A DNA stretch of 64,000 bases, from the NCBI GenBank assembly GCA_001029775.1, contig CP011215.1, positions 618,303 through 682,302 of the forward strand, read 5' to 3'. Numbering within the stretch: the first letter of the stretch is position 1; every line of letters begins with the position of its first letter. The position numbers were made by a program, and so were the translations under genes. This DNA is from Candidatus Campbellbacteria bacterium GW2011_OD1_34_28. Lineage in GTDB: Bacteria > Patescibacteriota > Minisyncoccia > Phycocordibacterales > UBA12079. Below are positions 548 to 58,456 of the stretch, one piece after another. Under the pieces are notes generated by a model, which saw only the letters and a list, made by a program, of their open reading frames with translations, was not told the origin of the DNA and searched no databases.

Positions 548-3004
548 TTATATAACAATATTCACCAATTTGTTCTTTACATAAATAACCTTTTTTGGTT
601 CATTCCCCGCCATCCATTTTTTAGACGCTTCTTGTTCCATTGCTAGTTTTTTCACATCATCATCACTTGTCCCCTCTTCTACCTGTATCTCTGCTCTTAC
701 TTTTCCGTTTATTTGAATCACAACTGTATAAGAAGTATCTTTCATCAAATTTTCGTCAAACTTTGGCCAAGGTTCGTTGTGAATAGAATTTGTATTTCCT
801 AAAATCTGCCAAAGTTCTTCTGTAATATGTGGAGCAAATGGAGAAAGAATTTTCAAAAAACTTTCATAATCTTGTCGTGCAATCTCTTCTTCCTTTTCCA
901 TATCATTAATCAATATCATCATTGCACTGACAGCGGTATTATATTTTAGATTATCAATATCATTTGAAACTTTTTTAATCGTCTTGTGCAACAAATTTTG
1001 GATTTTGTTTTCTACTTTCAACTCTCCACCTTTCACTTTCGAACTAAGTCTCCACATTTTCTCCAAAAATCTATACACCCCGACAATGTTGTCTTCGTTC
1101 CACATCACTTCATCTTCTAGAGGTGCGGCAAAAAGCATGTAAGTTCTAACAGAATCAGCCCCGAATCTGTTTACCATATCATTTGGATTGATAACATTTC
1201 CTTTTGATTTAGACATCTTTTTCCCTTGCCCATCCAATACCATTCCCTGATGACGCAATCTTTGAAATGGTTCATCAAAATTTACCAAACCGATTTTATT
1301 CATTGCTTTTACAAAAAATCTTGCAAACAACAAGTGCATATATGTGTGTTCTGCCCCTCCAATATACAAATCTACCGGTAACCATTTTTTGCGAGTTTCT
1401 GAGCAAAACTCTTTTTCATTATGAGGGTCGGGGTATCTCAAAAAATACCAAGAAGAATCCACAAAAGTATCCATAGTATCGTATTCAGGCACCCAACCTT
1501 CACCAAAAATTTTTTCTGTCCTTTCTTTCAGTTCTTTTGATTTTGCGAGAGGAGAGATCCCTGTTGGAACAAAATCTACATCCGCAGGCAAAGTCCATGG
1601 CAGATTTTCTTCGGGAACCAAGTGAGCTTCCCCATCTGGAGAATAAACAACAGGAATCGGACAACCCCAATATCTTTGACGAGAAATAGACCAATCACGC
1701 AGACGGTAATTAGTTGTCATTTTTCCTCCAACAAATTTTGTAATCTCTTTCTTTGCTTCTATATTATACATATCGGTAAATTTGCCAGAATTTACCAAAT
1801 AACCAGATTCCGAAAAACATTTTTTACCACTTCTCACATCACCGATAAACTCTAAAACCCCTTTTTGTTCAGAATGTTTAATTAAAGGATCACGGTTTTC
1901 AACAATCATTGGGCTTACAACTGGTTCTATTTTTAAATTATATTTCTTCGCAAACTCCAAATCCCTTTCATCATGCGCCGGCACCGCCATAATTGCACCT
2001 GTTCCATATCCACCCAAAACATAATCCGCAATAAAAACAGGGATTTCTTCTTGTGTTGCAGGATTAATAGCAAAAATTCCTTCCAGTTTTACACCGGTTT
2101 TTTCTTTCGCCTCGATTCTGTCCATCTCCGTTTTATTTTTTGCTCTCTCTATATAATTTTTAACCTCACCTAAATTCTGAATTCTATTTTCTAAATTCTC
2201 AATTATTGGATGTTCCGGAGCAAGCACCATATAAGTCGCACCAAACAAAGTATCAGGCCTTGTCGTAAACACCTTAATTTTAAGTTCTGAATTCTGAATT
2301 CTAAATTCTATTTCTGCTCCTTCACTTTTTCCGATCCAGTTAACCTGATTCTTTTTCGTATGTTCAGGCCAGTCTATCTTTTCCAAACCTGTAATCAAAT
2401 CATCTGCAAAATCAGTAATTTTGAAAAACCACCCGGGGACTTCTTTCTGAATAATCTCTGCTCCACATCTCTCACACTTGCCATCCACTACTTGTTCATT
2501 GGCAATAACAGTTTGGCAAGAAGAACACCAATTTGTCTTTGATGTTTTTTTGTAAACCAAATCGTTTTTATAAAATTGACTGAATATCCATTGAGTCCAT
2601 TTGTAATATTTTGGATCACTCGTCACTGCTTTTTCATCAAAATCATAAGCAAGACCCAACATTTTCATTTGACCAATATAAGTATTGATATTTTTTTCTG
2701 TTGTTTCAGCAGGATGAACTTTTGTCTTGATGGCATAATTTTCCGCAGGCAAACCAAAGGCATCAAAACCTTGTGGGTGCAAAACATTAAATCCCTGCAT
2801 CTTTTTGAAACGATAATAAACATCGCTCGCGGTATAACTTTCGGTATGTCCCATATGCAAACCGTCTCCTGATGGATAAGGGAACATATCCAAAATATAA
2901 TATTTTGGTTTTGAAGTATCGTCTTTATCTATTTTAAAAGCCCCTGTTTCCAACCAGTGCTTTTGCCATTTAGATTCAATATCTTTGTGATTATATTTCT
3001 CCAT
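548..3004 (-). CDS. leuS: Leucyl-tRNA synthetase (818 aa).
   Basis: HMGH(TESY) class I HIGH-type motif near the N-terminus, a KMSKSKGN motif, the CP1 editing region, and the typical bacterial LeuRS length and layout. Confidence 0.95.
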   Translation of the reverse strand: MEKYNHKDIESKWQKHWLETGAFKIDKDDTSKPKYYILDMFPYPSGDGLHMGHTESYTASDVYYRFKKMQGFNVLHPQGFDAFGLPAENYAIKTKVHPAETTEKNINTYIGQMKMLGLAYDFDEKAVTSDPKYYKWTQWIFSQFYKNDLVYKKTSKTNWCSSCQTVIANEQVVDGKCERCGAEIIQKEVPGWFFKITDFADDLITGLEKIDWPEHTKKNQVNWIGKSEGAEIEFRIQNSELKIKVFTTRPDTLFGATYMVLAPEHPIIENLENRIQNLGEVKNYIERAKNKTEMDRIEAKEKTGVKLEGIFAINPATQEEIPVFIADYVLGGYGTGAIMAVPAHDERDLEFAKKYNLKIEPVVSPMIVENRDPLIKHSEQKGVLEFIGDVRSGKKCFSESGYLVNSGKFTDMYNIEAKKEITKFVGGKMTTNYRLRDWSISRQRYWGCPIPVVYSPDGEAHLVPEENLPWTLPADVDFVPTGISPLAKSKELKERTEKIFGEGWVPEYDTMDTFVDSSWYFLRYPDPHNEKEFCSETRKKWLPVDLYIGGAEHTYMHLLFARFFVKAMNKIGLVNFDEPFQRLRHQGMVLDGQGKKMSKSKGNVINPNDMVNRFGADSVRTYMLFAAPLEDEVMWNEDNIVGVYRFLEKMWRLSSKVKGGELKVENKIQNLLHKTIKKVSNDIDNLKYNTAVSAMMILINDMEKEEEIARQDYESFLKILSPFAPHITEELWQILGNTNSIHNEPWPKFDENLMKDTSYTVVIQINGKVRAEIQVEEGTSDDDVKKLAMEQEASKKWMAGNEPKKVIYVKNKLVNIVI

Positions 3005-3042
3005 AATGTTCCCATTTTATCATAAAAATTTATAAGACTCAC

Positions 3043-3083
3043 ACCTATCCCAAAATTTTAACGACCGTTAAAATTTTAGGATA
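3043..3083. repeat. Palindromic repeat, family member 1: CCTATCCCAAAATTTTAACG-AC-CGTTAAAATTTTAGGATAG.
   Basis: Near-perfect 19-bp arms. Lies in the 5' region of leuS and 3' of the PaaX-like gene. Further copies at 3751, 27817, 28733, 31379 and 44725. Confidence 0.85.
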
Positions 3084-3116
3084 GTTGCGATACTTTATAA
3101 TACTTTGTTATCTTTT

Positions 3117-3146
3117 GCGATTTCATGCGATTTCATGCGATTTCAT
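3117..3146. repeat. Tandem decamer repeat (GCGATTTCAT) x3.
   Basis: Three exact consecutive copies read directly from the sequence. Confidence 0.9.
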
Positions 3147-3166
3147 GTTTTATTTTATAACCAATT

Positions 3167-3727
3167 TCACTTCAAACCAAATACCTCTTTTAACCATTTT
3201 TCATTTTCAATTCGATTAACCTCCATATACAAAACATCGCTATCAATAAAAATTTTTGTCTTCAACAAAAAAATCAATTCTTCGCATTCATAAGGAAAAA
3301 CCCAAACGCTGTTCTGCAATTTAACAAAACCAAGTCTATTTAAATTGGATCTGAGCAAATCCCTAAGACCTCTCTTTTTTTCTTCAACATCAAAAATTAT
3401 CACCCTCCATTTTTTGTCCCATTTTTTTGGTTTTTCTATTTTTAAATCTCCCAATTCATATCTTCCAATCAATTCATCGCCTTTTTTGGTAAGTTTAATA
3501 AATTCAGAATCACCTTTTCTAACTTTTTCTAGCATACCCTTTCTCAACAAATTCTTGATTGACTCATTCATATTATATTTTTCCTTAACCCATCTTTTTT
3601 TATTTGGGGAAAATTGTTTAATGACTTGAAGAGCATTGGGAGCCACGATAGCAACACCAATTAATCCGGCTGTCGCTACGGTCGTTAAAATAATTTTTTG
3701 AATATTTATATTTTTTGAATCGTCCAT
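3167..3727 (-). CDS. PaaX-like transcriptional regulator: N-terminal TM helix, winged HTH (..LTKKGDELI..), and a WDKKW...FDV...LQNSVWVFPYEC core with the Cas2/VapD-type fold.
   Basis: Resembles E. coli PaaX (WDGKWLLLLSE...; yRLTekG wing). The core matches the Cas2 beta1-alpha1-beta2 signature (hhhFDV...R..L...G.rvQNSV[FW].c). The gene is flanked on both sides by 40-45 bp palindromes. Confidence 0.6.
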   Translation of the reverse strand: MDDSKNINIQKIILTTVATAGLIGVAIVAPNALQVIKQFSPNKKRWVKEKYNMNESIKNLLRKGMLEKVRKGDSEFIKLTKKGDELIGRYELGDLKIEKPKKWDKKWRVIIFDVEEKKRGLRDLLRSNLNRLGFVKLQNSVWVFPYECEELIFLLKTKIFIDSDVLYMEVNRIENEKWLKEVFGLK

Positions 3728-3750
3728 TCATATATTTATAGCATAAATCT

Positions 3751-3795
3751 CACCTATCCCGAAATTTTAACGGTCGTTAAAATTTTGGGATAGGT
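3751..3795. repeat. Palindromic repeat, family member 2: CACCTATCCCGAAATTTTAACG-GT-CGTTAAAATTTTGGGATAGGTG.
   Basis: 22-bp arms with one mismatch. Lies immediately upstream of the PaaX-like gene start. Confidence 0.85.
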
Positions 3796-3930
3796 GACGG
3801 TTTATATGTTTTTTATATTTCATATTTTATATTTTGTATTTTGTATTCTATATTTTTGTAATTCAAAGTTTTCTAATTCAATTCAAAAATTTAAAGCCTG
3901 AGTATCAATTAATTCATTCTTTAAAATTTA

Positions 3931-3964
3931 AAAAGCCCCGATTGAGGTCGGGGCTTTTGTTTTG
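3931..3964. terminator. Rho-independent terminator downstream of ORF 3970-4377 (-).
   Basis: AAAAGCCCCGA ttgagg TCGGGGCTTTTG. GC stem with flanking A- and T-runs. Confidence 0.75.
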
Positions 3965-3969
3965 ATAAC

Positions 3970-4377
3970 TTATGCCGTTGCTGGTGTCACAACAGGCTCA
4001 CTGTTAATTTTTGAAGGGTCATCTTCTTTTATGGCCGTAATAATTTTATTGACATATAAAATCATGACTTCCCTGTCTGGATTATATTTACAAGACTCGT
4101 AGTACAATTCCCAAAAAATAAATTTTGTTTTACCCACAACAAAATTATTGCAAATTCCTTTTTGAAAAAGCGGACATTCCTCACACCTAAAATTTGAGAT
4201 ATTTTTCACATCAAATTCAATACAATAACCACATTCACCTTTCAACCGAGGAGTAGTCCCGACCTGCAAAAAATCATCCATCATAGTTTGTTTAATCTCA
4301 AGCCATTTTTTTAATGAATTATTCCACCTTTCAGGCCATTCTTTTGAATAGACATGTTGCGGTAAATTTTTCGACAT
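3970..4377 (-). CDS. Cys-rich hypothetical protein (135 aa).
   Basis: ORF with its own terminator. CGYC...CEEC...C motifs suggest metal binding. No recognisable family. Confidence 0.5.
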   Translation of the reverse strand: MSKNLPQHVYSKEWPERWNNSLKKWLEIKQTMMDDFLQVGTTPRLKGECGYCIEFDVKNISNFRCEECPLFQKGICNNFVVGKTKFIFWELYYESCKYNPDREVMILYVNKIITAIKEDDPSKINSEPVVTPATA

Positions 4378-4456
4378 TTCTCTCTCCTTACAAAAAGATT
4401 GTCATTTAAAATTCGTCTCTATTTTGAATATTACAATATTTGAATAAAAAAGTAAA

Positions 4457-4490
4457 CAAAAATCGCCAAAGGCGATTTTTGTTTTTCTTT
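4457..4490. terminator. Hairpin terminator.
   Basis: AAAAATCGCC aaag GGCGATTTTTG followed by a T-run. Confidence 0.65.
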
Positions 4491-4506
4491 ACAAACTTTA
4501 AGAACT

Positions 4507-4522
4507 TGCCTGCCGGCAGGCA
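4507..4522. repeat. GC-rich perfect palindrome TGCCTGCCGGCAGGCA.
   Basis: 16-bp perfect palindrome in an AT-rich background. The same core occurs at 25049-25068, and a related hairpin at 7212-7232. Confidence 0.8.
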
Positions 4523-4549
4523 GGCTTTATAAACTTTATAAACTCTTTT

Positions 4550-5101
4550 CTATTTGAATTTTCTTATACCTAGATAAACGAGTACTGCCAACGCAAGACC
4601 CAATATTCCAACTTGCAAAAATTCACTTGCAAACTGCCAATATCTAATTGAAGCAACTATGAATGCAAGAACTCCACCTAGTGGGAATGCTACTGAAACG
4701 ATAGGCTGAGTTGCCATCACAAATCCAATTACAATAGAGATTACACCCAGACCAATCAGAGTCATAAAAACATTTCTTTCATAACCCTCTTTCGCTGTTT
4801 GATACTCTTGATTACATGTGAAGTATAAATCACAATATCCTGGATTTATAACCTCTCCATTTTCGTCAAAAACAGGAATTGGCTTTTCTGGAGAATCACG
4901 GTAAATATTTTCATTCCACTGACCTCCCTGCTCCAAACACATTTCTCTTGTGTCTATTTTTTCTACTACTTGTTTATCTTGGCAAAACTCTTCGTACTTA
5001 GGTTCGCTATAAACAACTTTCATAGCATAGGCAAAGAATAGATTAAGAACAACAATTATTCCTAAAATCAATGCCCATTTTAAAACTTTATTTTCAATCA
5101 T
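4550..5101 (-). CDS. Hypothetical membrane protein (183 aa): N-terminal TM helix, Cys-containing extracytoplasmic domain, two C-terminal TM helices.
   Basis: Hydrophobic segments read from the translation. No recognised family. Confidence 0.5.
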   Translation of the reverse strand: MIENKVLKWALILGIIVVLNLFFAYAMKVVYSEPKYEEFCQDKQVVEKIDTREMCLEQGGQWNENIYRDSPEKPIPVFDENGEVINPGYCDLYFTCNQEYQTAKEGYERNVFMTLIGLGVISIVIGFVMATQPIVSVAFPLGGVLAFIVASIRYWQFASEFLQVGILGLALAVLVYLGIRKFK

Positions 5102-5240
5102 ATATTAATAAATAAGTTAACAAGCTATCAGCCGACAACTGACAACTACTTCTAATAGTTAAATTATAGCAATTTATAAGGTTTGTAGCCAACAGAGTGG
5201 GGTGTCTCGAAAGAAAAGCAGTTTCTGCAAATAGGGGTTT

Positions 5241-8058: not shown

Positions 8059-8085
8059 AAAAAAGTCGCCGAAGCGACTTTTGTG
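8059..8085 (-). terminator. Terminator with a cUUCGg tetraloop on the minus strand. Nearly identical to the hairpin at 14307-14334.
   Basis: Minus strand reads GTCGC-TTCG-GCGAC followed by TTTTTT. It lies immediately 3' of ORF 8088-9254 and matches the 14307 copy at 23 of 24 positions. Confidence 0.75.
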
Positions 8086-8087
8086 CA

Positions 8088-9254
8088 TTAATCAGTATTC
8101 CAAACTTTAAAAAATAAATATACCAAAATAAAGATTATCAAAAGAATGACCAACCAAATCCACCAAGGACTGTCTGAAAAGAAACCACCTGCCATAGCAA
8201 CATTTTTTAAATTGTCAGAAGCAGAAAAAGAACTCGTTGAAACGGTAGTGGTAGTACTTGTGACTTGTCCATTATTATCTTTATCATTTAAAATAAGAGT
8301 CCCCCCATCGGTCAATTTCATAACTAAATCCAAATCGTTGTCTGATAAACCTTCGTGAAAACCAGAATATCCTGAAAAATATCTTTCTTCCTCTGCACCC
8401 AATTTTTGATTGATTTCTTCTTCGGTCAACATTTTAAAACTATGTTCTATTCCAACTGTTGCAGGTGAAGCATGAGAAACGGCTCTATAATAATAAGTTT
8501 TTCCAGCCTCCAGATCAGCCAACAAAACCGAGTGATTCAAAACTTTTACCAAATCCTCGCTCGTGCCATAAGGATATCCATAATTAGGAAGTGATAAATC
8601 TAGAGAATAATTTTGTCCCTCCTCTCTGTAAATTACTTGACTCGTAGAGAGATAACTTGTGTTCCATTGAATTACCACGGAATCAAGATTTAACAAAATA
8701 CTTGTTTCATTCTTTATGGTCAAACCGCGTGGTGCACTTCCTCCTCCCCCACCAGCGCCAGAATTTACAAACACTCCTCCCTGAAAACCAATCAATAGAT
8801 CAAAAGTTGAGGAAAGTGATTGATATTCGTTCTCTTTTTCAGGAAGGAATGTAACAATAAAATCGTATTCGGCACTAGATCCATTATTTAAATTACCCAA
8901 ATTAATTTCGTCGCCATTCAAAAAATCCTCCAAAGAACCATTGAACAATTCGTTGTCCTCTCTTTTAATAATTAAATTTATGGCCTCTGACAAACAAGGT
9001 GTTTTATCGCAAGAGTTTGAATTAATTGCGGAAACAACAACAGTTTGAGATTTGCCAAGAGTATTTGTAACTTTTATATATTTTGTAACAGACTCACCTG
9101 GAATAAAATTTATTTCAGAAAAGAGCGGTGTACTTTCAAACTCTACGTCTAAACCATTTTCGGCATAAACAATATTACTAGTACCAAAAAACAAAGCAAT
9201 GAAGAAAATTATTATATTCAATTTTATTTTTAAAACTTTCATATTATTCTTCAT
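8088..9254 (-). CDS. Secreted, C-terminally membrane-anchored protein (388 aa) with a Gly-rich linker. Last gene of the TasA/SipW-like operon.
   Basis: N-terminal signal peptide, a GAGGGGGS linker, a Ser/Thr-rich stalk, and a C-terminal TM helix (WWIWLVILLIIFILVYLFF). Confidence 0.6.
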   Translation of the reverse strand: MKNNMKVLKIKLNIIIFFIALFFGTSNIVYAENGLDVEFESTPLFSEINFIPGESVTKYIKVTNTLGKSQTVVVSAINSNSCDKTPCLSEAINLIIKREDNELFNGSLEDFLNGDEINLGNLNNGSSAEYDFIVTFLPEKENEYQSLSSTFDLLIGFQGGVFVNSGAGGGGGSAPRGLTIKNETSILLNLDSVVIQWNTSYLSTSQVIYREEGQNYSLDLSLPNYGYPYGTSEDLVKVLNHSVLLADLEAGKTYYYRAVSHASPATVGIEHSFKMLTEEEINQKLGAEEERYFSGYSGFHEGLSDNDLDLVMKLTDGGTLILNDKDNNGQVTSTTTTVSTSSFSASDNLKNVAMAGGFFSDSPWWIWLVILLIIFILVYLFFKVWNTD

Positions 9255-10617
9255 TATTATTTAAATCTTCTTCATCTTCAGAATTAACAGGAATAATATC
9301 CTCTTGTTTAATAAGTACAACATCGTCACCCAACAAAAGAACAGGGTCAGTTTCGGTTACTTCCTCTTTCTTTTCATTTATTTCTTTTTGTTTAGACTCA
9401 AGTTCGGGTTCGGGTTCTGGTTCAACCTCTACTACTATAGGTTCTTCAACAAAAACATCTTTCTTATTTTCTTCCGAAACATCTTCTTCAAGATTATTTG
9501 CGACAAATTGAATATTCTCAATGACAACATTGTGTGGATTTGTTCCCGGATTTGGACCAACTGGTGTTGACCCATCATAAGTATCCATCCAATCATCCGC
9601 CGTGTTAGTATCAATTCCTTTTTCTTTTCTTGAAATCGAATGTCCCAAAATCACGGCTGAGACAGACGGATTGAAAGCGGTAATATTGTCACCCCAACTA
9701 ACTGAATCAATCAAATTATTTTCATCATCATAAAGCATAAGGACATCACCATTATCATCCAGACCGTCGTCAAACATTTTTGTTCCACCCAAAGCAATCT
9801 TGAAAGCATTGTCTGGAATATCTGGCCAATATGCCCAAGTAGAAGCATTTGCGGCAATCACAACAAACTGGTGTGATTCTATTATGTAATTTTGATTTAT
9901 TAGTTCACTATTATCTTCATTGTTTAAATACCATTTCTTAATATTAACTTCGTGATCACAAACATTATAAAGCTCTATCCACTCATCGTTTGGATTGTTT
10001 TCAAAACCATTTGCACCTTCTCTAATTCCTGGGTAATAATAAACCTCGTTAATCTTTATACAAGATTCTGGTACAGGTTCAGGAGTTAATTCATCAATAA
10101 ATACCGTATTAGAAACATCTTCTTCATCACTAAAACCTCCCACGCCATACTCGGGAAAATCTTCTTGCCACCCCTGATAGACAAAATTGAAATCGCAATA
10201 ACCATAAGAATTTTCTCTTGCTTCTAATTGAAATTGCCAAATCCCCAAACTAGTTGTTGCATAAGAAAAATCATTTATATAACCATTGTAAACTTGGACA
10301 CCGTTTAAATTAGCCACCAAAATTAAATTTTCACACAGACGATTCCTGTCACCAAATTCTGGTAAAATCTTGTATTTAAAATCTAAACTACCTTCATTTT
10401 TTATTTCTATACTGGTGCTGGCAGAACTTAACATATTAGAGTTTTCAAAACCATTTCCAATTAAAACAAAATCCAGAGATGCGACAGAAAAATTGATTTT
10501 GGAAGACTCTACATCACTGTGATAAGCATAAACTTTAACCGCAACAAAAGAAAAGGAAATCTGAATAATCAAAGACAAAACTGTGTAACTTATTATTTTT
10601 TTAGTTAAAGTTTTCAT
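9244..10617 (-). CDS. Secreted lamin-tail-domain (LTD) protein with an acidic low-complexity C-terminus (457 aa).
   Basis: INEVYYYP...NDEWIELYN...VNIKKWYL matches the LTD signature. Signal peptide present. The C-terminus is EPEPEPE/EEK-rich. Confidence 0.6.
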   Translation of the reverse strand: MKTLTKKIISYTVLSLIIQISFSFVAVKVYAYHSDVESSKINFSVASLDFVLIGNGFENSNMLSSASTSIEIKNEGSLDFKYKILPEFGDRNRLCENLILVANLNGVQVYNGYINDFSYATTSLGIWQFQLEARENSYGYCDFNFVYQGWQEDFPEYGVGGFSDEEDVSNTVFIDELTPEPVPESCIKINEVYYYPGIREGANGFENNPNDEWIELYNVCDHEVNIKKWYLNNEDNSELINQNYIIESHQFVVIAANASTWAYWPDIPDNAFKIALGGTKMFDDGLDDNGDVLMLYDDENNLIDSVSWGDNITAFNPSVSAVILGHSISRKEKGIDTNTADDWMDTYDGSTPVGPNPGTNPHNVVIENIQFVANNLEEDVSEENKKDVFVEEPIVVEVEPEPEPELESKQKEINEKKEEVTETDPVLLLGDDVVLIKQEDIIPVNSEDEEDLNNNEE

Positions 10618-10626
10618 AAATATTTT

Positions 10627-11142
10627 TTATGTATTACTCTTTTTTGTTTTTTTTATCTCTTTCCATATTTTTTTGGATTCATCATAAACAATTATTACGC
10701 CTGGGATTATAATCAAAATTGCGAAACCAAAAGGTTTTCTTGCTTCTTGAACAACATAACCAGCATAAGGTAAACTAAACAAAACTTTTCCAATTACATC
10801 TTCTTTCGGGACATCTTTTGGGTCTTTGTCATCGTTGGCGTCTCCTTTTGTTATGTAATAATAATCCCCTTCTATCACTTTTATATCTACAATCCTGTGG
10901 GTGATAGGGGTCTCACTTTTATAAACATCACCAAAAGTTATAACATCACCTACCTGATAATCATCACTCGGTTTTATTACAGCTACACTTCCCGTCTTTA
11001 TTGCCGGCTCCATTGATCCAGACTGTACAACTCTTAATTCATAGTTACCTGTTATGGGGAAAATTGATGCAATCATGAGAACAGCCATTAAAAATATCGC
11101 GAAGACAACTATGTAATAAATGATTTTAATTAACTTATTCAT
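10627..11142 (-). CDS. sipW: Type I signal peptidase of the SipW/Sec11 (S26B) type (171 aa).
   Basis: N-terminal TM helix, the SGSMEP catalytic Ser motif, and ITHRIV (His). It sits directly downstream of two SipW-cognate-signal proteins. Confidence 0.8.
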   Translation of the reverse strand: MNKLIKIIYYIVVFAIFLMAVLMIASIFPITGNYELRVVQSGSMEPAIKTGSVAVIKPSDDYQVGDVITFGDVYKSETPITHRIVDIKVIEGDYYYITKGDANDDKDPKDVPKEDVIGKVLFSLPYAGYVVQEARKPFGFAILIIIPGVIIVYDESKKIWKEIKKTKKSNT

Positions 11143-11266
11143 ATCTTTGTAACGGACTTTGTTAAAGCCTTTATTGACCGCCCGAACTTACCTCACAGTT
11201 CAAGCGGTCTAAAAAGTTTCAAACTTTTTAAAAGAGAATCGAAATTAGAAATTAGTGTTTCTAGTA

Positions 11267-12568
11267 CTAATCTAGTTCCTCTTCGTCTAGGTTGATATTT
11301 TCACAAGAGAAGTTCTCATTGTTTCTTACTTGTTCCGCGTAAGCAGTCAGACTTGCTTCAAGCGAATCTGATTGCGCGTCATCAAGCATTCCACTTCCAT
11401 CACAATTAATTTCTCCTGTTGTGTGATTTACTTGGATATCTCCGGCACACCAAGCAAAGCCTACATATCCTGTTGGGCCACCTCCCGCAAGTGACATCTG
11501 AATAACTTCTGTTTGGATATTTCCCTCATACAGACTATCCTCTGTATTAGGTTCATAAACGCCATCGCCGTCATCTTCCCAAGCAAAAATATTGATGTAA
11601 TCGGAAAGCTCCCCTAAACCTGCAGGATTTCCGCTGGTAAGGGTATCTCCTACACTTTCTTCTGTTTCAAGAAGCTCATTTTCTTCATCATTCATGTCAT
11701 GTATTATCAAACATGCGTAAGCATCATTTGAATTGACATGTAAAGAAATTAGGTTTGTTCCCCAATCAGATGGTTTTACATCCCCAAAATTGAAGAATTT
11801 TTGTGATCCGTCAAGATCAGTTTCTCTCCAAAGTTGACAAGCTTTTTTGAATTCACTATTTGCGTCACAGTCTTCTGCATCGCGAGTAACAGTGAGGTAG
11901 TAAAGCAAGCCTCCTGGATTATTAAGTGGGGTGTTGTATGCAGGATTAGTTTGGGTTAAATTAGTTACAACAAATGTAAGTGTGTTTTCACCCGGTACAA
12001 CCTGCGCCAAGAATGACGCTTCTGATACAGGGTCAAGTGTTGTATATTGAGCACTTCCCGAACCAGCTGAAATGGATACTCCGTTTAGGAATAATTCATA
12101 TTGGTTATCAGCTGCAACATCCATCACTAAATCAACACTAACAGCATCACCCCACCAATCGAATTCATGTTCAAAGGTGTAAGTAACATTGCCATCTGTA
12201 CCATCATCACCAACTAAAGTAGCTGGAGAAGCCCAAATCCATTGTGCTGTTGGATGGGTTGTCCAATACTGGAGAGTAATGGGTGTATCAATTACGATAG
12301 GAGCTTGAAATGGAAATACTGTAATTTCTGTATTAACACCAGAAACAACATCTGCTCCACCATCGCCACTGAAAAGTACCAGTGAGCATGATTCACAGTC
12401 ATCGCCATTATAAGTTTGTGCCAAATGATCTACTTTGAGGTCAATAGATCCGGCAGTGAATATGTTTCCTGCCGAGGTTTCTGTGTCATTGAAGAAAGCA
12501 TAAGTTCCTCCAATAATCACCGCCCCGGCCAAAACAATCGTGCCTAGGCTAAAAATTATTTTTTTCAT
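11267..12568 (-). CDS. TasA/camelysin-like secreted protein with a SipW-cognate class signal peptide, paralog 2 (433 aa).
   Basis: N-terminal ...GGTYAFFNDTETSAGNIFTAGSIDL is the classic SipW-cognate motif (AFFxDTETS..N.FtaG.lDL). Shares the KFFNFxDxKPxDxGxNxISLHV and C-terminal Y.EQ.RNN.F.C blocks with ORF 12596-13753. Confidence 0.75.
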   Translation of the reverse strand: MKKIIFSLGTIVLAGAVIIGGTYAFFNDTETSAGNIFTAGSIDLKVDHLAQTYNGDDCESCSLVLFSGDGGADVVSGVNTEITVFPFQAPIVIDTPITLQYWTTHPTAQWIWASPATLVGDDGTDGNVTYTFEHEFDWWGDAVSVDLVMDVAADNQYELFLNGVSISAGSGSAQYTTLDPVSEASFLAQVVPGENTLTFVVTNLTQTNPAYNTPLNNPGGLLYYLTVTRDAEDCDANSEFKKACQLWRETDLDGSQKFFNFGDVKPSDWGTNLISLHVNSNDAYACLIIHDMNDEENELLETEESVGDTLTSGNPAGLGELSDYINIFAWEDDGDGVYEPNTEDSLYEGNIQTEVIQMSLAGGGPTGYVGFAWCAGDIQVNHTTGEINCDGSGMLDDAQSDSLEASLTAYAEQVRNNENFSCENINLDEEELD

Positions 12569-12595
12569 GTTTTTAAGTTAGCTTTAGTCTGATAA

Positions 12596-13753
12596 TTACA
12601 GATCTGAATCTGTGTATGTTATGAGATTTAACTCAAACAAAGATTCTATTCCCACTGGCCATGTGGTTACGCTATTAGTTCCTGAGTTATATTCTGATGA
12701 TTTTATTACCCAGATTTTTGCACCTCCTGGATAATTAGCATCGGCTGAATCAGGAAGATTCATTCCCAAATTTACATCTCCTGAAACACTGGCATCACCA
12801 CTGCCGTCAGTTGTCAGTGTTCCGATTAATGCGCCTGGATTATTTCCTGGCCATCCATCAGCATAATAGATGATACTGTATTGAGTTGAAGCAACTAAAC
12901 CAGATACATCTAATGTGTAGTTAAATGTTGGGTGAGACGAAATGAAAGTTAATTCTCCTTCAACCCCATCATCTAGATAAGGATCCCATGTACCATCAAT
13001 ATCTTTGTTTTCTAATTTAAGAACAGTTCTCACTGGTTCTTGATTGTTTATACTTCCACAGACAAATTCATCATTGTTTCTTGCTTGTTCAACATAGAAA
13101 CTAATGTCACCTGTCATACTATCTGTTTGGATTTCGTTTCCAACTGATGCTGGAACACTCCATGAAACACCAATGTATGTAGTAGATGCTCCTGTCAATG
13201 GACCTGTTGCTGTTGTTGAGTCATAGATAGACAAAACACCATTGGCAGGATTACCTGATGTCAATGTTTGTTCACTTCCGTTTTGAATATTGTCGCCTGC
13301 AACCCCACCGCCTGCGCCATTATCTCTCCAGACGTTCCAAACCATAACACTTGATAGTTCACCATCGTTTACGCCAGTAGTTAAATCTACTGAAGCTTCT
13401 GGTTCTGTTTGACCGTTTTCAAGATCAGTCAAATTGGAAACTTCTGCACAAACCCAAGCGTCATTATTGATAACATGCAAACTGATGGTATTCTCTCCAG
13501 AATCCCCTGGTTTTATGTCATCAAAATTAAAGAACTTATCCGATGTTGGGATTAGATCTTTTTCTGCCCAAGTTGCGGCTTCAACATCCTCTCCATTATA
13601 GGTAGCAGTGCTATCTATTCTTAGATCGATTGCCCCAGCCGTAAAGGTGTTTCCTGTAGACGTTTCAGTGTCACTAAAGAAAGCGCCTGTAGCTCCAATA
13701 ATTATCGCTGCTGCTGCGACAATTGTCGAAGCACTAATGATTATTTTTTTCAT
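12596..13753 (-). CDS. TasA/camelysin-like secreted protein with a SipW-cognate class signal peptide, paralog 1 (385 aa).
   Basis: N-terminal ...GATGAFFSDTETSTGNTFTAGAIDL. Paralog of ORF 11267-12568. Confidence 0.75.
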   Translation of the reverse strand: MKKIIISASTIVAAAAIIIGATGAFFSDTETSTGNTFTAGAIDLRIDSTATYNGEDVEAATWAEKDLIPTSDKFFNFDDIKPGDSGENTISLHVINNDAWVCAEVSNLTDLENGQTEPEASVDLTTGVNDGELSSVMVWNVWRDNGAGGGVAGDNIQNGSEQTLTSGNPANGVLSIYDSTTATGPLTGASTTYIGVSWSVPASVGNEIQTDSMTGDISFYVEQARNNDEFVCGSINNQEPVRTVLKLENKDIDGTWDPYLDDGVEGELTFISSHPTFNYTLDVSGLVASTQYSIIYYADGWPGNNPGALIGTLTTDGSGDASVSGDVNLGMNLPDSADANYPGGAKIWVIKSSEYNSGTNSVTTWPVGIESLFELNLITYTDSDL

Positions 13754-13989
13754 AATTTTAATAAATTAAATTAGTTTATAAGTTTATATTTATTTGCCAT
13801 TTATATTAAATATAAAAAATGTCTTATTTTACTTTTTGTCTTTAGTTGTTTTTTATTTATTTTTTTATTTACATAGTTTTTTAAAAAAAATTAAGATTGA
13901 TAATTCTCGACCTTTCTTATTACAGACAATAAATATGTAAGTTTTTATTGAATGCAAAAAAGACTCTTTTAAAGAGCTTCTAGAATTAC

Positions 13990-14085
13990 TGAGGTAGATT
14001 GCCGAGGTAGAATTACCAAAAGCGTGCCAGCGTGGAATGAGGTAGAGAGTGAGAGGTAGAGTGCTTGAGGTAGAGTGACTGAGTA
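13990..14085. repeat. Five direct copies of GAGGTAGA (iteron-like) within about 90 bp.
   Basis: ctGAGGTAGAttgccGAGGTAGAatt...atGAGGTAGAgagtgaGAGGTAGAgtgcttGAGGTAGAgtgactGAGTAGAta. Confidence 0.8.
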
Positions 14086-14212
14086 GATATTTTTTTAATT
14101 AACCTAATATCAATTATATAGATATATACCTGTATATGTCAACTTTAAAAATGTATATTTTTTGTAATCAAAAAAACCTTATTTAAAAGCTTTTTTAGGC
14201 TTATACAAAAAG

Positions 14213-14524
14213 TTATCCACAGTTTTTAAACTTGAGTTATCCACAGTTTAAAAACTGTGGATAACTTAAAAAACGTCGTTGAATTTAAATTATTTTTAGA
14301 AAAATGAAAAAAGCCGCCGAAGCGACTTTTTTCAATGTAGATATTAATCCGAAAATTAATATCTACATTGTATCCACAGATCCGAAAATCTACGGATACA
14401 ATGTAGATATAAAACCGAAATTTTATATCTACAGCGTACTTACTAGTCCGAAGATTAGTAAGTACATTTCTATCTTAACCAATTGAGATAATTTGTCAAT
14501 ACTTTTTCGATTAACTGTGGATAA
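14213..14524. promoter_or_regulatory. Cluster of DnaA boxes (TTATCCACA). Perfect 9-mers at 14213-14221 (+), 14237-14245 (+), 14256-14264 (-) and 14516-14524 (-). One 8/9 box (gTATCCACA) at 14370-14378.
   Basis: Boxes 2 and 3 form a perfect palindrome AGTTATCCACAGTTTaaAAACTGTGGATAACT. Four perfect copies of a single 9-mer within 312 bp is far above chance in 64 kb. Confidence 0.7.
14307..14466. repeat. Array of five tandem hairpins with a conserved CCGAA(A/G) loop (UUCG-type loop on the minus strand) and variable stems.
   Basis: H0 GCCGC-cgaa-GCGAC; H1 ATGTAGATATTAAT-ccgaaa-ATTAATATCTACAT; H2 TATCCACAGAT-ccgaaa-ATCTACGGATA; H3 TGTAGATATAAAA-ccgaaa-TTTTATATCTACA; H4 TACTTACTAG-tccgaag-ATTAGTAAGTA. 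Confidence 0.8.
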
Positions 14525-14556
14525 CTTGGAAACAATTAATTTAAAAGGTTGGCTTA

Positions 14557-15194: not shown

Positions 15195-15610
15195 AGAGAG
15201 GAATCGGTCACGAGTCACTAAATATATTTAGTGCTCGCGATATTGTTCTGTGGATTATAAGAGAGGAATCGTCCCGCGGTTACTAAGTAAATTTTTCGCA
15301 AGCTCAAATTTACTAAGTACCGCTGGACGCGACTCAAAATTATGCTCCCAGCATAATTTTTCCGTCGTTCGATTCCTCTTTGGTCCTACAAAATCAAAAG
15401 CCCCGATGTTTTCACATCGGGACTTAAGATTTTGTGGAGAGGAATCGGCTCCCAGTTCTAAACAAAAATATGGACCAGAGAGGAATCGGTCACGAGTCAC
15501 TAAGTCTTTTGTTCATTCTTCGCTTCGCTACGAACTCCAAAAGCCTAAGTGCTCGCGACCCCGGCTCGTCTGTTTTGCTTCGCAAAACATGACTCCGCCT
15601 TTCGATTCCT
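15195..15610. repeat. Multiple partial copies of the tRNA-Ala 3' end (T-arm plus acceptor, core GAGAGGAATCG), in both orientations.
   Basis: Copies at about 15195, 15259, 15436 and 15471 share up to 19 nt with the tRNA 3' end. Inverted copies (TTCGATTCCTC) lie at about 15368 and 15597. Associated motifs GTCACGAGTCAC and TAGTGCTCGCGA each occur twice. Confidence 0.8.
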
Positions 15611-15654
15611 CACGAAAGCAAAGCAGTTTGCTTTCTTCTGGCACAGCAACACAA

Positions 15655-15688
15655 AATAAAACACCATCTAAAAAAGATGGTGTTTTAT
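15655..15688 (-). terminator. Terminator immediately 3' of tRNA-Ala.
   Basis: AAAACACCATC taaaaaa GATGGTGTTTT. Confidence 0.7.
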
Positions 15689-15698
15689 TTTGGTTGTG

Positions 15699-15772
15699 TG
15701 GACCAGAGAGGAATCGAACCCCCGGCCTCCTCAGTGCAAGTGAGGCGCTCTAGCCAACTGAGCTACTGGCCC
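15699..15772 (-). tRNA. tRNA-Ala (anticodon UGC), 74 nt, CCA not encoded.
   Basis: Cloverleaf deduced manually. Acceptor GGGCCAG/CUGGUCC with the G3:U70 Ala identity pair. D-arm GCTC-AGTTGGCTA-GAGC. Anticodon arm CCTCA-CTTGCAC-TGAGG. T-arm GGGGG-TTCGATT-CCTCT. Confidence 0.85.
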
Positions 15773-20108: not shown

Positions 20109-20888
20109 TTATTGTGCTGTACGGAAAGAAGCAGGAGTGGTTATGCTCACATTTTTTGATGAGTCAAACACCACAATCAAATAGTAATATGTTGTATTTG
20201 ATGTGAGGTTATTGATGTTTACCGTGTGAGTAACACGGGCAAGACCATCATATTGAGCCAATGTTCCAGTTACTATAGGTTCTCCTGAGAAAACTCCAGT
20301 TGCATCAAATATATTACTTATTCTAATAGGTGATGTACTGTAATATACTTTTCCCATAGAAGCTTCACTTGCTGTCCAAGTAACGGATGCTCCATCATTA
20401 TCAGTAGTTACATTTATACTTTTTATTGTAGGAGCATAAACATCCCCACCAACATTTCCACCACCTCCAAGTCTTGCATTAATAGCAGCTTGTGTTAGTG
20501 GACCAACACGACCATAACCAGTTGTCGCTGGTGTTCCTTGGGAAACGATTCCCACCGATGTTTGAAATCTTTCTACTGCTGCTTTGGTAAGTTGACCAAA
20601 GTATCCAGTAACCAAACCTTCAGGATAGATACTCACATCTGTAGCGAGATATGTCTGAAGTTCAGTGACTTCCGAACCACGGTCACCAAGGTCCAACTGA
20701 CTAGTGATGACAGCATAGGCACTTTGAACGCCAAAGACCAACAAAGCAAGCATGGTCATCATTGTCACACCAAAGAGAAAACCTATGCGTGGTATATTCT
20801 TTTGTAAATTTATTATTTTGTTCATGTTATTTTTGTTTAGATTAATAATAGAGATTGTTAAGTTAAAATGTTTTACATGATCGACCAT
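20109..20888 (-). CDS. Secreted protein with a peptidoglycan-binding domain (PG_binding_1) and a C-terminal Ig/FN3-like beta domain. An internal ATG at 20825 is possible.
   Basis: Signal/anchor helix. DLGDRGSEVTELQTYL...DGYFGQLTKAAVERFQ matches the PGBD consensus. Confidence 0.65.
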   Translation of the reverse strand: MVDHVKHFNLTISIINLNKNNMNKIINLQKNIPRIGFLFGVTMMTMLALLVFGVQSAYAVITSQLDLGDRGSEVTELQTYLATDVSIYPEGLVTGYFGQLTKAAVERFQTSVGIVSQGTPATTGYGRVGPLTQAAINARLGGGGNVGGDVYAPTIKSINVTTDNDGASVTWTASEASMGKVYYSTSPIRISNIFDATGVFSGEPIVTGTLAQYDGLARVTHTVNINNLTSNTTYYYLIVVFDSSKNVSITTPASFRTAQ

Positions 20889-56339: not shown

Positions 56340-58118
56340 TTATTTTCTCTTATTCTTTGATCTCTCTGTTTCGGTCAAATGTTTCTTTCTCAAACGAACG
56401 CTCTTGGGAGTAATTTCTAGATATTCATCGTTCGCCATTACTTCAAGACCCGATTCAATAGAAATCTTTTTAGGTGGTATCAAAACAATGTTTTCATCAG
56501 ATCCAGCTGCTCTCATATTAGTCAATTGTTTTCCTTTTGTTGGATTTACCACCATCTCTTCGCCCTTTGAAGTATTCCCAACAACCATACCTTCATAAAT
56601 TTCTGTGTTTGCTTCTATATACAATTCCCCTCTCTCCTGTAGATTGTACAAAGAAAAACCAAGAGCCTTTCCTGTCGCCATCGATATCATTGAGCCAGTT
56701 GCCCTCTTTGCAATCTCTCCTGCGTATTCCTTGAAGCCAATCACACGACTAGAAATGATCCCCTCACCTTTTGTATCCACGATAAATTGTCCACGATAAC
56801 CCAAAAGACCTCTAGTTGGAATCTCAAAAATCAAACGAGTTGTATTTTCATGCTGTCTCATTGAAATAAGAATTCCTCTTCTCTTTCCCAGTTTTTCTAT
56901 TACAACTCCCTGGGCTTCATTTGGGACATCAACGGTCACTTCTTCGTAAGGTTCCAATTTCACTCCATCTTTTTCTTTTATAATAATGTGTGGTTGGGAT
57001 ACTTGAAGCTCGTAACCTTCTCTTCTCATATTTTCAAGCAAAACAGCAATGTGCAATTCTCCACGACCTGCTACTTTGTAATTTCCTTCTGAAAAATCTA
57101 CTTCCAAACCTACGTTTATTTCCAATTCTCTTTCCAATCTCTCTCGGATCTGTCGGCCTGTAACAAATTTTCCTTCTCTTCCTGCAAACGGAGAATTGTT
57201 TACCAAAAAATCCAAAGTGATTGTTGGTTCATCTACTTTGATAGCAGGCATTGGTTCTATATTCTCATCTGTTGTTATTGTCTCTCCAATAAAAACATCA
57301 GGAAGCCCAGCAAGCATAACAATATCGCCCGCAGTTACTTCTTTTGCTTCTTCACGAGACATTCCTTTAAATGTAAAGATTTTTGTTATCTTTCCTTTTC
57401 TTGTCTCTCCTGTGTGTTTTTTTACAAAAATATTTTCTCCGTCTTTTAAAACTCCGTCATAAATTCTGCAAATAGCCAATCGCCCAAGAAAATTGTCATA
57501 TCCCAAATTAAATACCTGTGCCTTTAAAGGAGCATTTGTATTTGAAGGTGCAGGAGAAACTTCTTCCAAAATAGTCTCTAACAAAGGAGTTAGATCTTTT
57601 GATTCATCTTCCAAATTTTTCTTTGCAATACCATCACGGCCAATTGCATAAACAGTTGTAAAATTTAGTTGTTCGTCGTTTGCTCCCAATTCCATAAACA
57701 ACTCAAAAACATCTTCACCTGCTTGTTGAGGATTCGCTGCTGGTTTGTCTATTTTATTTAAAACAACAATTGGTTTTAGACCCAATTCCAAAGATTTTTT
57801 CAAAACGAAACGAGTTTGTGGCATCGGGCCTTCTTGAGCATCCACAATCAAAAGAACCGAGTCAATGGAACGAAGCACGCGTTCTACTTCTGATCCAAAA
57901 TCGGCGTGTCCAGGAGTATCCACAATATTTATCTTTGTTCCTTTATAAATAAGAGACGTGTTTTTAGCATAAATAGTAATACCTCTTTCCTGTTCTATCT
58001 TGTCGGTATCCATACTCATTCCGTCAGCAAACATACCCGTCTGACGCATAATGGCATCCGTTATAGCTGTTTTTCCATGGTCCACATGGGCAATGATTGC
58101 GATGTTTCTAATTTCCAT
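56340..58118 (-). CDS. typA: Translational GTPase TypA/BipA (592 aa).
   Basis: [20 protein letters not shown]1 motif. EF-G-like domains. The C-terminal ...[20 protein letters not shown] matches the TypA tail and is unlike LepA. Confidence 0.88.
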
Positions 58119-58456
58119 ATCTTTTATAGGCTTTGATCCTTAAATTATTCAAATAAAAAAAGACGCCAAGCGACTTTGATGCAAAGATAATACATTAAAA
58201 TCTGAAAAGAATCAATAGAAAAGACAAGGCCATTTCTTAAAGAGGTTGACAAAATGCCTAAACTATAATACTCTTGCACGATAAGTTATATCTCATCGTA
58301 TCCATATATTTTTCTTGTTGGAACCAAAGAGATCCTAGTCGACTTATTTGGTTAGCAAGAAACATCTCAAGATACTTAATTTTTGTGATAAATGCGAAAA
58401 CAAAAATAGGGCATCGAACCCTATATCTTTTAATTTAAAGACTAGCAGGAAAAAAT

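Follow-up and report, generated by a model that had tools for sequence, protein, structure and literature searches.

A TasA-like operon with a SipW-type signal peptidase in Candidatus Campbellbacteria, predicted to encode a membrane-anchored donor-strand surface fibre

The closest described systems to the locus reported here are the tapA-sipW-tasA operon of Bacillus subtilis, the archaeal bundling pili AbpA/AbpB of Pyrobaculum calidifontis, and the sipW-bsaA-bsaB-bsaC matrix/pilin operon of Clostridium perfringens, in which one sipW gene is accompanied by several paralogous SipW-dependent subunits. Mature TasA begins with residues 28-38, which serve as its donor strand, and TapA has been proposed as the supplier of the first strand (PMC9674648). 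For the Patescibacteria, or candidate phyla radiation (CPR), one survey sentence mentions homologs of PF12389 (PMC9245690); beyond this sentence, the searched literature contained nothing on TasA, SipW or camelysin in the CPR, and no description of the present cassette was found. Among the surface appendages of these ultra-small, host-dependent organisms, the searched papers discuss mainly type IV pili. In this study, a 64,000-nt stretch of the genome of Candidatus Campbellbacteria bacterium GW2011_OD1_34_28 (contig CP011215.1; hereafter, the window) was analysed, which carries a five-gene operon on the minus strand between positions 13753 and 8088. We propose, with a probability of roughly 0.6, that this operon encodes a membrane-anchored surface fibre of the TasA superfamily, assembled by donor strands, glycan-binding and pilus-like. 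It would represent a second, widespread surface-fibre system in Patescibacteria. A preliminary description of the window, made from the sequence alone, had held that the operon is not a described system. This is fair for the searched literature, but NCBI already names the proteins 'TasA family' or 'SipW-dependent-type signal peptide-containing protein'.

The five co-directional minus-strand open reading frames (ORFs) lie exactly at the positions given by the preliminary description. The first gene (12596-13753) encodes a subunit of 385 aa, S1, which consists of a SipW-cognate signal, a donor-strand motif, a TasA-like jellyroll and a C-terminal Cu/Zn superoxide dismutase (SOD)-like beta-sandwich. 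The second gene (11267-12568) encodes S2 (433 aa), whose signal, donor strand and TasA-like core are as in S1, with a lectin-like insert of ~150 aa between the donor strand and the core. They are followed by the genes for a SipW-type peptidase (10627-11142; 171 aa), a lamin-tail-domain (LTD) protein named L-type here (9244-10617; 457 aa) and a last protein named P-type (8088-9254; 388 aa). The genome has a GC content of ~34%, and the closest homologs of S1 belong to Candidatus Campbellbacteria (Patescibacteria/CPR). The SipW protein of the window is found on contig DNLU01000003.1 (316 kb) of assembly GCA_003489565.1.

Family matches were judged against the curated NCBIfam cut-offs (TIGR04088, 19 bits; TIGR02228, 51.85; NF046066, 450; NF046067, 190; TIGR04090, 60) and the Pfam gathering scores (PF12389, 22.5 bits; LTD PF00932, 34.3; FN3-like PF16656, 30). 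The SipW-cognate motif attributed earlier to both subunits was found as GAFFSDTETSTGNTFTAGAIDL in S1 and as YAFFNDTETSAGNIFTAGSIDL in S2. TIGR04088, the model of the SipW-cognate signal, scored 23.6 bits for S1 and 34.9 bits for S2. PF12389 (Peptidase_M73) scored 26.8 bits over residues 2-57 of S1 and 31.3 bits over residues 2-48 of S2, so that both subunits passed the two models against which the preliminary description had proposed to check them. The TasA equivalog model NF046066 gave 15.4 bits for S2 and no match for S1. Since its cut-off was missed, S1 and S2 are not TasA orthologs.

In the AlphaFold2 model of S1 (mean pLDDT 85.6), disorder was seen only at residues 23-39, which hold the motif FFSDTETSTGNTFTAG. 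When the model was searched with Foldseek, the TasA fibre structure 8aur was recovered at a probability of 0.99, and the mature domain was classed as a TasA-like jellyroll. Structure prediction had been suggested as a check on the fibre interpretation, and its outcome agreed with that interpretation: the mature fold of S1 is TasA-like, and its structural neighbours are fibre subunits, not proteases. This also bears on the Pfam name Peptidase_M73, after which the subunits could be taken for camelysin-type secreted metalloproteases. The PF12389 matches favour such an assignment; however, they cover the signal region only, no other protease family was matched, HExxH is absent from the S1 sequence, and the neighbours in structure are of the fibre type. 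We therefore regard a protease function as extremely improbable. The C-terminal SOD-like sandwich of S1 contains a single His, too few for a metal site. S1 and S2 are secreted TasA-fold proteins in which the predicted SipW cleavage site is directly followed by the conserved N-terminal segment whose equivalent in Bacillus TasA is the donor strand.

The core of S2 was aligned to S1 by hhalign with a probability of 100%, which at the profile level makes the two unambiguously homologous. The profile of the S2 insert family matched the PDB chains 6t1d, 6t0q and 6kbj, designated 'Lectin' (E ~2e-8), and residues 132-243 of the rhamnosidase 3w5m (E 5.5e-7). We take all four matches to be CBM67-like sugar-binding modules. 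The insert is a lectin-like (galactose-binding-like) module and a putative sugar binder.

Gene 3 had been described as an S26B/SipW-type peptidase with an SGSMEP motif, and this assignment held. It scored 123.1 bits with TIGR02228 (archaeal/ER-type signal peptidase I), far above the cut-off, and contains SGSMEP, THR and GDAN as well as hydrophobic segments at its termini. With the Bacillus SipW equivalog NF046067 it scored 126.5 bits, which was under the cut-off; by these scores, gene 3 is SipW-like and not an ortholog of Bacillus SipW.

For comparison, 79 loci were fetched out of 403 stretches of a species-representative collection that encode an S1 relative. Across these loci, the peptidase motif S-G-S-M-x-P was present in 68/71 and HR in 71/71 peptidases. 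The SipW gene adjoined the subunit genes in 68 of the 70 loci with downstream sequence. The gene order of the window, 2-4 subunits followed by SipW, L-type and P-type, was found in 25/79 loci, and a further four were cut by the contig end; another 10/79 showed subunits, SipW (or a SipW fusion) and P-type. Adjacent genes overlapped or lay at most 10 nt apart at the sipW/L-type junction in 27/31 loci and at the L-type/P-type junction in 22/25. The genes are thus co-conserved in related genomes, as a synteny check proposed by the preliminary description had called for. The subunit family comprises more than 2200 clusters. Carriers include Campbell-, Nomura-, Zambryski-, Morani-, Buchanan- and Taylorbacteria, and the cultured Ca. 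Microsyncoccus archaeolyticus PMX.50 (locus L037). A cassette was also seen in a metagenome-assembled genome of Candidatus Aenigmatarchaeota (DPANN; JAGGTL010000066.1, locus L030, 2407-7867), which encodes SipW, two further TasA-like proteins and an S1-type protein of full length, C-terminal domain included, at 39% identity. The finding points to a gene transfer across domains, between two episymbiotic groups, or else to an error of binning.

The L-type protein of the window consists of a degenerate SipW-cognate/donor-strand motif (AYHSDVESSKINFSVASLDF), a divergent TasA-like domain, the LTD and an acidic tail. The lamin-tail domain named in the preliminary description was recovered by PF00932 with 53.1 bits over residues 186-309, well above the gathering score of 34.3. 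TIGR04088 gave no match to the window L-type protein at E <= 0.1. Its orthologs carry a clear AYYNDTETS..N.F.AG.LDF motif, e.g. AYYNDTETSSGNSFVAGLVDF, and hhalign aligned L-type with S1 at 97.5% over the N-terminal 48 residues. The LTD was present in 7/7 scanned L-type proteins and in one SipW fusion, and the longer proteins also bear immunoglobulin (Ig)-like or concanavalin A (ConA)-like lectin domains. From these alignments, the LTD protein is a third predicted SipW-cognate, TasA-like protein with a donor strand, a feature that the preliminary description had overlooked.

Further information on the L-type proteins came from long SipW proteins (at least 290 aa), which were found in 21 loci. 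The extension matched an L-type domain or LTD in 7/21, and in 6/21 a donor-strand motif (SYFND.E.S..N.L.A..LDF) followed soon after an internal hydrophobic helix. Single-polypeptide SipW fusions occur in loci L011, L049, L062, L068, L070 and L075, and SipW-LTD fusions in L014, L018 and L072. Such Rosetta-stone fusions show, on the level of gene architecture, that L-type proteins are likely substrates of SipW. The fusions imply either self-processing or a 1:1 coupling of the peptidase with the L-type accessory protein.

The last ORF had been described as a Gly-linker/Ser-Thr-stalk protein with a C-terminal anchor, and all of these elements are present: the linker GAGGGGGS, the Ser/Thr stretch TSTTTTVSTSS and, at the C-terminus, a hydrophobic helix. 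The full order of the P-type protein is an ordinary signal peptide, a TasA-like core without a donor strand, the Gly linker, FN3, the disordered Ser/Thr stalk and the C-terminal transmembrane (TM) helix. The FN3-like domain was recognised both by PF16656, above its gathering score, and by its FN3 fold. Across the family, the signal peptide is directly followed by ...L.V.FE..PLF.E.NFLPGD.VTR.V.VTN. In hhalign comparisons, the P-type N-domain matched the L-type core at 97.4% (E 1e-11) and S1 at 66.6% (E 5e-5). Moreover, a hidden Markov model (HMM) of the P-domain matched nine L-type and eight TasA-like ORFs of the fetched loci. Pfam M73 was matched weakly by 7 of 25 P-type N-domains (best E 2.3e-4), far more often than any other family, and not by that of the window; the N-domain profile gave non-significant matches to the PDB (E ~0.3). 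These profile comparisons, of modest strength, suggest that the P-type core is TasA-like and divergent.

The difference between the P-type protein and the other components was then examined at the mature N-terminus. In the alignment, the mature P-type protein starts where the SipW-cognate motif ends ('LD(L/F)'), so that P-type proteins lack exactly the segment equivalent to the TasA donor strand (residues 28-38). A census of the fetched loci gave a donor-strand motif in 157/195 subunits, 19/31 L-type and 0/35 P-type proteins. A C-terminal hydrophobic or TM helix was found in 0/199 subunits, 0/30 L-type and 24/36 P-type proteins. An exhaustive search with the P-domain returned 1048 representatives (50% identity clusters), in which the top matches nearly always begin at residue 25-40. 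Among the best 150 hits, 126 representatives were full-length-like; the donor motif was present in 0/126 and the C-terminal helix in 107/126.

From these components, the following mechanism can be proposed. Cleavage by SipW would free the donor strands of S1 and S2, and the two subunits would then polymerise head-to-tail through donor-strand exchange, in the manner of TasA. The L-type protein would give the first or distal strand, like TapA, and would bear the adhesin domains. The P-type protein would accept a strand but have none of its own to pass on. Its place would therefore be the cell-proximal end of the fibre, where it would close the chain and, through stalk and helix, keep the fibre in the membrane. 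A structured spacer before sipW, together with the overlapping sipW, L-type and P-type genes, would yield many subunits and few accessory proteins.

Donor-strand exchange in S1 and S2 is suggested, indirectly, by the motif that follows the cleavage site, by its disorder in the monomer model and by the precedent of TasA. If the motif served as a cleavage or recognition signal only, S1, S2 and L-type would be non-polymeric surface proteins, that is, monomeric lectins, adhesins or coat proteins. Such an arrangement would fit the concentration of the TasA sequence similarity in the signal region, and also the lectin-like, LTD, Ig-like and ConA-like domains of S2 and L-type, which are typical of adhesins. 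We consider it rather improbable.

The operon might instead encode a released biofilm-matrix scaffold as in Bacillus, with subunits that would be secreted and polymerise at a distance from the cell. P-type would then be co-transcribed but do something else in the membrane, such as acting as a chaperone or an assembly platform to which donor strands bind only transiently. TasA itself is a matrix fibre, the P-type gene is missing in 23 loci, and a strand-accepting domain could equally serve as a chaperone. However, the L-type and P-type genes overlap or adjoin each other in the 22 of 25 loci mentioned above, the N-domain of P-type shares homology with the cores of the L-type and TasA-like proteins, and a C-terminal helix after a long stalk, as seen in most of the full-length-like representatives, suits a permanent anchor. 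We consider a released scaffold unlikely, yet the most serious of the competing explanations.

Several observations weigh against a membrane-anchored fibre. Polymerisation, a filament, the cleavage site and anchoring have been observed in no member of the Patescibacteria. The Pfam M73 similarity of S1 and S2 is confined to the N-terminal 48-57 residues. When a profile of 54 S1 homologs was searched against the PDB sequences, no TasA chain was found. The TasA-likeness of P-type depends on modest profile scores, and the fold search with its model was swamped by FN3 matches. Subunits and SipW occur without a P-type gene in 23/79 loci, indicating that anchoring by P-type is not universal. Furthermore, the promoter, the transcript ends and any attenuation, described below, are predictions.

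The cultured relative PMX.50 links the operon to published expression data. In the study of Kuroda et al. (mBio 2024, PMC10936435), PMX.50_00004 was annotated as sipW. The protein PMX.50_00003 was assigned a galactose-binding-like fold and superposed on 3w5m by the authors; it ranked among the top five most highly expressed signal-peptide genes and its published function is unknown (PMC10936435). TasA was not mentioned in that paper (PMC10936435). In locus L037, the ORFs are arranged as 20-1288, 1992-3353 (subunit), 3374-4627 (subunit with an S2-type insert) and 4719-5222 (SipW), and from this gene order and the gene numbering, PMX.50_00003 was assigned as the S2 ortholog. One component of the system is therefore already among the top-expressed secreted proteins of a cultured archaeon-parasitic relative, with its TasA-likeness unrecognised. 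In PMX.50, lepB (PMX.50_00208) and sipW (PMX.50_00004) are distinct genes. As a more tentative extension of the anchored fibre, to which we give less than even odds, the operon may encode a polar, cell-anchored TasA-type pilus with three specialised parts that TasA systems are not known to have: an initiator or tip protein linked to its own signal peptidase in the genome and sometimes within one polypeptide, lectin-bearing shaft subunits, and a new class of terminator subunit that is acceptor-only and C-terminally anchored in the membrane. Such a pilus would serve Paceibacteria-type Patescibacteria as one of their main organelles of host attachment, next to type IV pili.

A separate gene of the window (20112-20888, minus strand) encodes a 259-aa protein with a peptidoglycan-binding domain and an FN3-like PF16656 domain as in P-type. 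It is similar to peptidoglycan-binding secreted proteins that are highly expressed in archaeon-parasitic relatives (PMC10936435).

The preliminary description had also attributed to the operon its own AT-rich control region of ~0.8 kb, and the intergenic region 13754-14556 is indeed 803 nt long with 25.9% GC. A probable operon promoter lies at 14113-14142 on the minus strand, with TTGACA, an 18-nt spacer and TATAAT (12/12 matches), which leaves a leader of ~350 nt before S1; no comparable promoter was found between 14113 and the S1 start. In a related locus, L002, whose S1 protein is 79% identical, TTGACA is present at the equivalent position. In the four same-species loci L081-L084, the control region was 99% identical to that of the window and gave no covariation signal. 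At the other end, a terminator (AAAAGUCGC-UUCG-GCGACUUUU followed by a U run; 8061-8082, minus strand) begins 6 nt past the P-type stop. Promoter (14142-14113) and terminator (8082-8061) together delimit one predicted transcription unit of ~6 kb.

This terminator is the downstream member of two near-identical 24-nt hairpins that had been described as bracketing the region. Both hairpins exist and are identical at 23/24 positions, with 2 matches against 0.00 expected in shuffles; their true positions, 8059-8082 and 14307-14330, differ by 2 nt from those first given. The idea of a bracketed region did not hold, since both hairpins qualify as intrinsic terminators on the transcribed minus strand and the upstream copy lies beyond the operon promoter, in a separate array. 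The pair was found only in the same-species loci (L001, L081-L084) and in 0/79 other loci, L002 included.

Two hairpins in direct orientation at both ends, with 23/24 identity, might be taken to delimit a mobile or recently inserted cassette. Nevertheless, the hairpins are terminators, the upstream copy is part of the five-hairpin array, and L002 has the operon without the pair. A comparison of GC and codon usage with the backbone had been suggested as a check. The GC content at third codon positions (GC3) of the operon genes was 0.24-0.28, compared to 0.262 +/- 0.029 for the backbone, and their codon usage fell inside the backbone distribution; the raised total GC of S1 and S2 stems from their amino-acid composition. 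No integrase or transposase was found within 10 kb on either side of the operon. Therefore, the operon is not an island, and a mobile cassette has hardly any probability left.

The preliminary description had placed a hairpin between S2 and sipW and suggested that it could act as an attenuator. The hairpin is real and lies at 11176-11209, ~3 nt from the position given at first. The minus-strand spacer (11176-11230) contains an A/U stem (11210-11230) and a 13-bp G+C stem (11176-11209) with a GAGGUA loop and no U-tract, and its fold had a z score of -4.1. L002 retains the hairpin, which differs there by one compensatory pair (T-A to C-G) and a number of wobble changes. Across loci, the subunit-sipW spacers were more structured than the subunit-subunit spacers (mean z = -5.6 vs -4.0; Mann-Whitney p = 3e-4), and 6/41 of the former resembled canonical terminators. 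An attenuator that sets the stoichiometry is plausible from these folds; a role of the hairpin in mRNA stability or processing would fit equally well.

The leader contains a repeat segment (13990-14075, minus strand) with five copies of UCUACCUC. Three copies occur in L002, and none was found upstream of the cluster in more distant loci. The complement of UCUACCUC, GAGGUA, occurs once in the ~6-kb transcript, at 11189-11194 (minus strand), in the loop of the S2-sipW hairpin; the L002 loop reads AGGAGGUAGG. This complementarity may mean that the two sites pair over a long distance or bind a common factor. The segment is predicted to be unstructured (leader fold z = +0.33) and, being C-rich and G-poor (38% C, 11% G), is like Rho-utilisation sites. 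An anti-Shine-Dalgarno role for the CUACCUC leader repeats was considered and dropped, since all five operon genes are without a Shine-Dalgarno sequence. None was seen at the eight inspected starts (13753, 12568, 11142, 10617, 9254, 14910, 7946 and 7171), whose leaders are all A/U-rich. An Rfam scan of the hairpin array, the leader and the S2-sipW hairpin returned nothing at the gathering score; for example, rsmX reached 28.6 against 56 bits, which is at chance level.

The array that contains the upstream 24-nt hairpin is not part of the operon. It lies after yggT at 14305-14465 (minus strand) and consists of five consecutive perfect UUCG-tetraloop hairpins with a period of ~33 nt (minimum free energy, -75.8 kcal/mol; z = -14), of which the last (14305-14334) is the terminator-like upstream 'bracket'. 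A promoter-like site (14499-14472) is present just after yggT and ahead of the array. An alternative 24-bp hairpin (14359-14410) competes with array hairpins 2 and 4. The array was found only in the same-species loci, and no other copies of its units were present in the window, for which reason a dispersed repeat was rejected. The array may represent a small RNA or a 3' end made of several hairpins. A TIGR (tandem interspaced guide RNA) array requires either edge and loop repeats in alternation, with two spacers that are not complementary, or stem units with large loops, and in addition an adjacent Nop-domain Tas gene (PMC12045711). This candidate was rejected, since each unit pairs fully with itself around a 4-nt loop and the gene calls within 10 kb include no Nop-domain gene. 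Public annotation places a 60-aa plus-strand ORF (14304-14486) across the array, which is probably spurious.

Three perfect DnaA boxes (TTATCCACA; 14213-14264) are located 70-150 nt upstream of the operon promoter, and a fourth lies at 14516-14524. These are the only four perfect boxes in the 64-kb window, in which 0.64 were expected, and array hairpins 2-4 bear degenerate boxes. L002 has two tandem boxes upstream of its operon promoter, though its upstream gene differs. A replication origin at this cluster is unlikely, since no skew or gene-orientation switch was found at 14 kb and since in L002, too, boxes accompany the operon promoter. The cumulative GC-skew minimum of the window lies at ~58100-58450, where the gene orientation turns from minus to plus; it is flanked by typA/bipA and a DEAD-box helicase, not by dnaA/dnaN, and is without a perfect DnaA box. 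No dnaA was found among seven ORFs around this switch and at 17-21 kb, the only window ORFs scanned for it.

Elsewhere in the neighbourhood, a tRNA-Ala(tgc) gene lies at 15698-15772 on the minus strand, and the region 15196-15716 downstream of it carries copies of its T-arm/3'-end core, CGATTCCTCTC. Four further direct copies and two inverted copies with one mismatch were counted there (8 matches against 0.53 expected). They may be integration-site remnants or a repeat RNA.

Compared with the Bacillus subtilis tapA-sipW-tasA operon, the locus likewise encodes a SipW-type peptidase, presumably a dedicated one, together with substrates carrying the TIGR04088 signal, a jellyroll subunit that resembles the fibre structure 8aur, and an accessory protein that shares the donor-strand motif (TapA there, L-type here). 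However, the proteins are not orthologs (NF046066, 15 vs 450; NF046067, 126 vs 190). Here, two to four large subunits carry extra domains (the SOD-like sandwich and the lectin-like insert), the accessory protein has LTD and adhesin-like domains, and the gene order differs. The locus also encodes an additional membrane-anchored, TasA-like protein that would be acceptor-only and, to our knowledge, is without equivalent in the Bacillus operon. The bsa operon of C. perfringens is similar in that sipW stands alongside several paralogous subunits; nevertheless, S2 scored 13.8 bits with the BsaA family model TIGR04090, against a cut-off of 60, and we know of no LTD protein and no C-terminally anchored acceptor-only protein described for that operon. 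The system also resembles the AbpA/AbpB pili, but the archaeal operon has no nearby dedicated signal peptidase and no lectin-bearing subunit, and no anchored acceptor-only subunit has been described for it. With chaperone-usher and sortase-assembled pili, the locus would share the proposed logic only, namely a tip adhesin, a repeating shaft and a terminal subunit by which the chain is closed and attached to the envelope; the proteins and the assembly machinery are unrelated, and no usher, chaperone or sortase is present here. Neither the tapA-sipW-tasA operon nor the AbpA/AbpB pili are known to include the conserved components added here, namely large multi-domain subunits, an LTD-bearing strand donor and an anchored acceptor-only subunit. 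If the last of these acts in the proposed way, it would provide a route from a matrix-type donor-strand fibre to a cell-anchored pilus.

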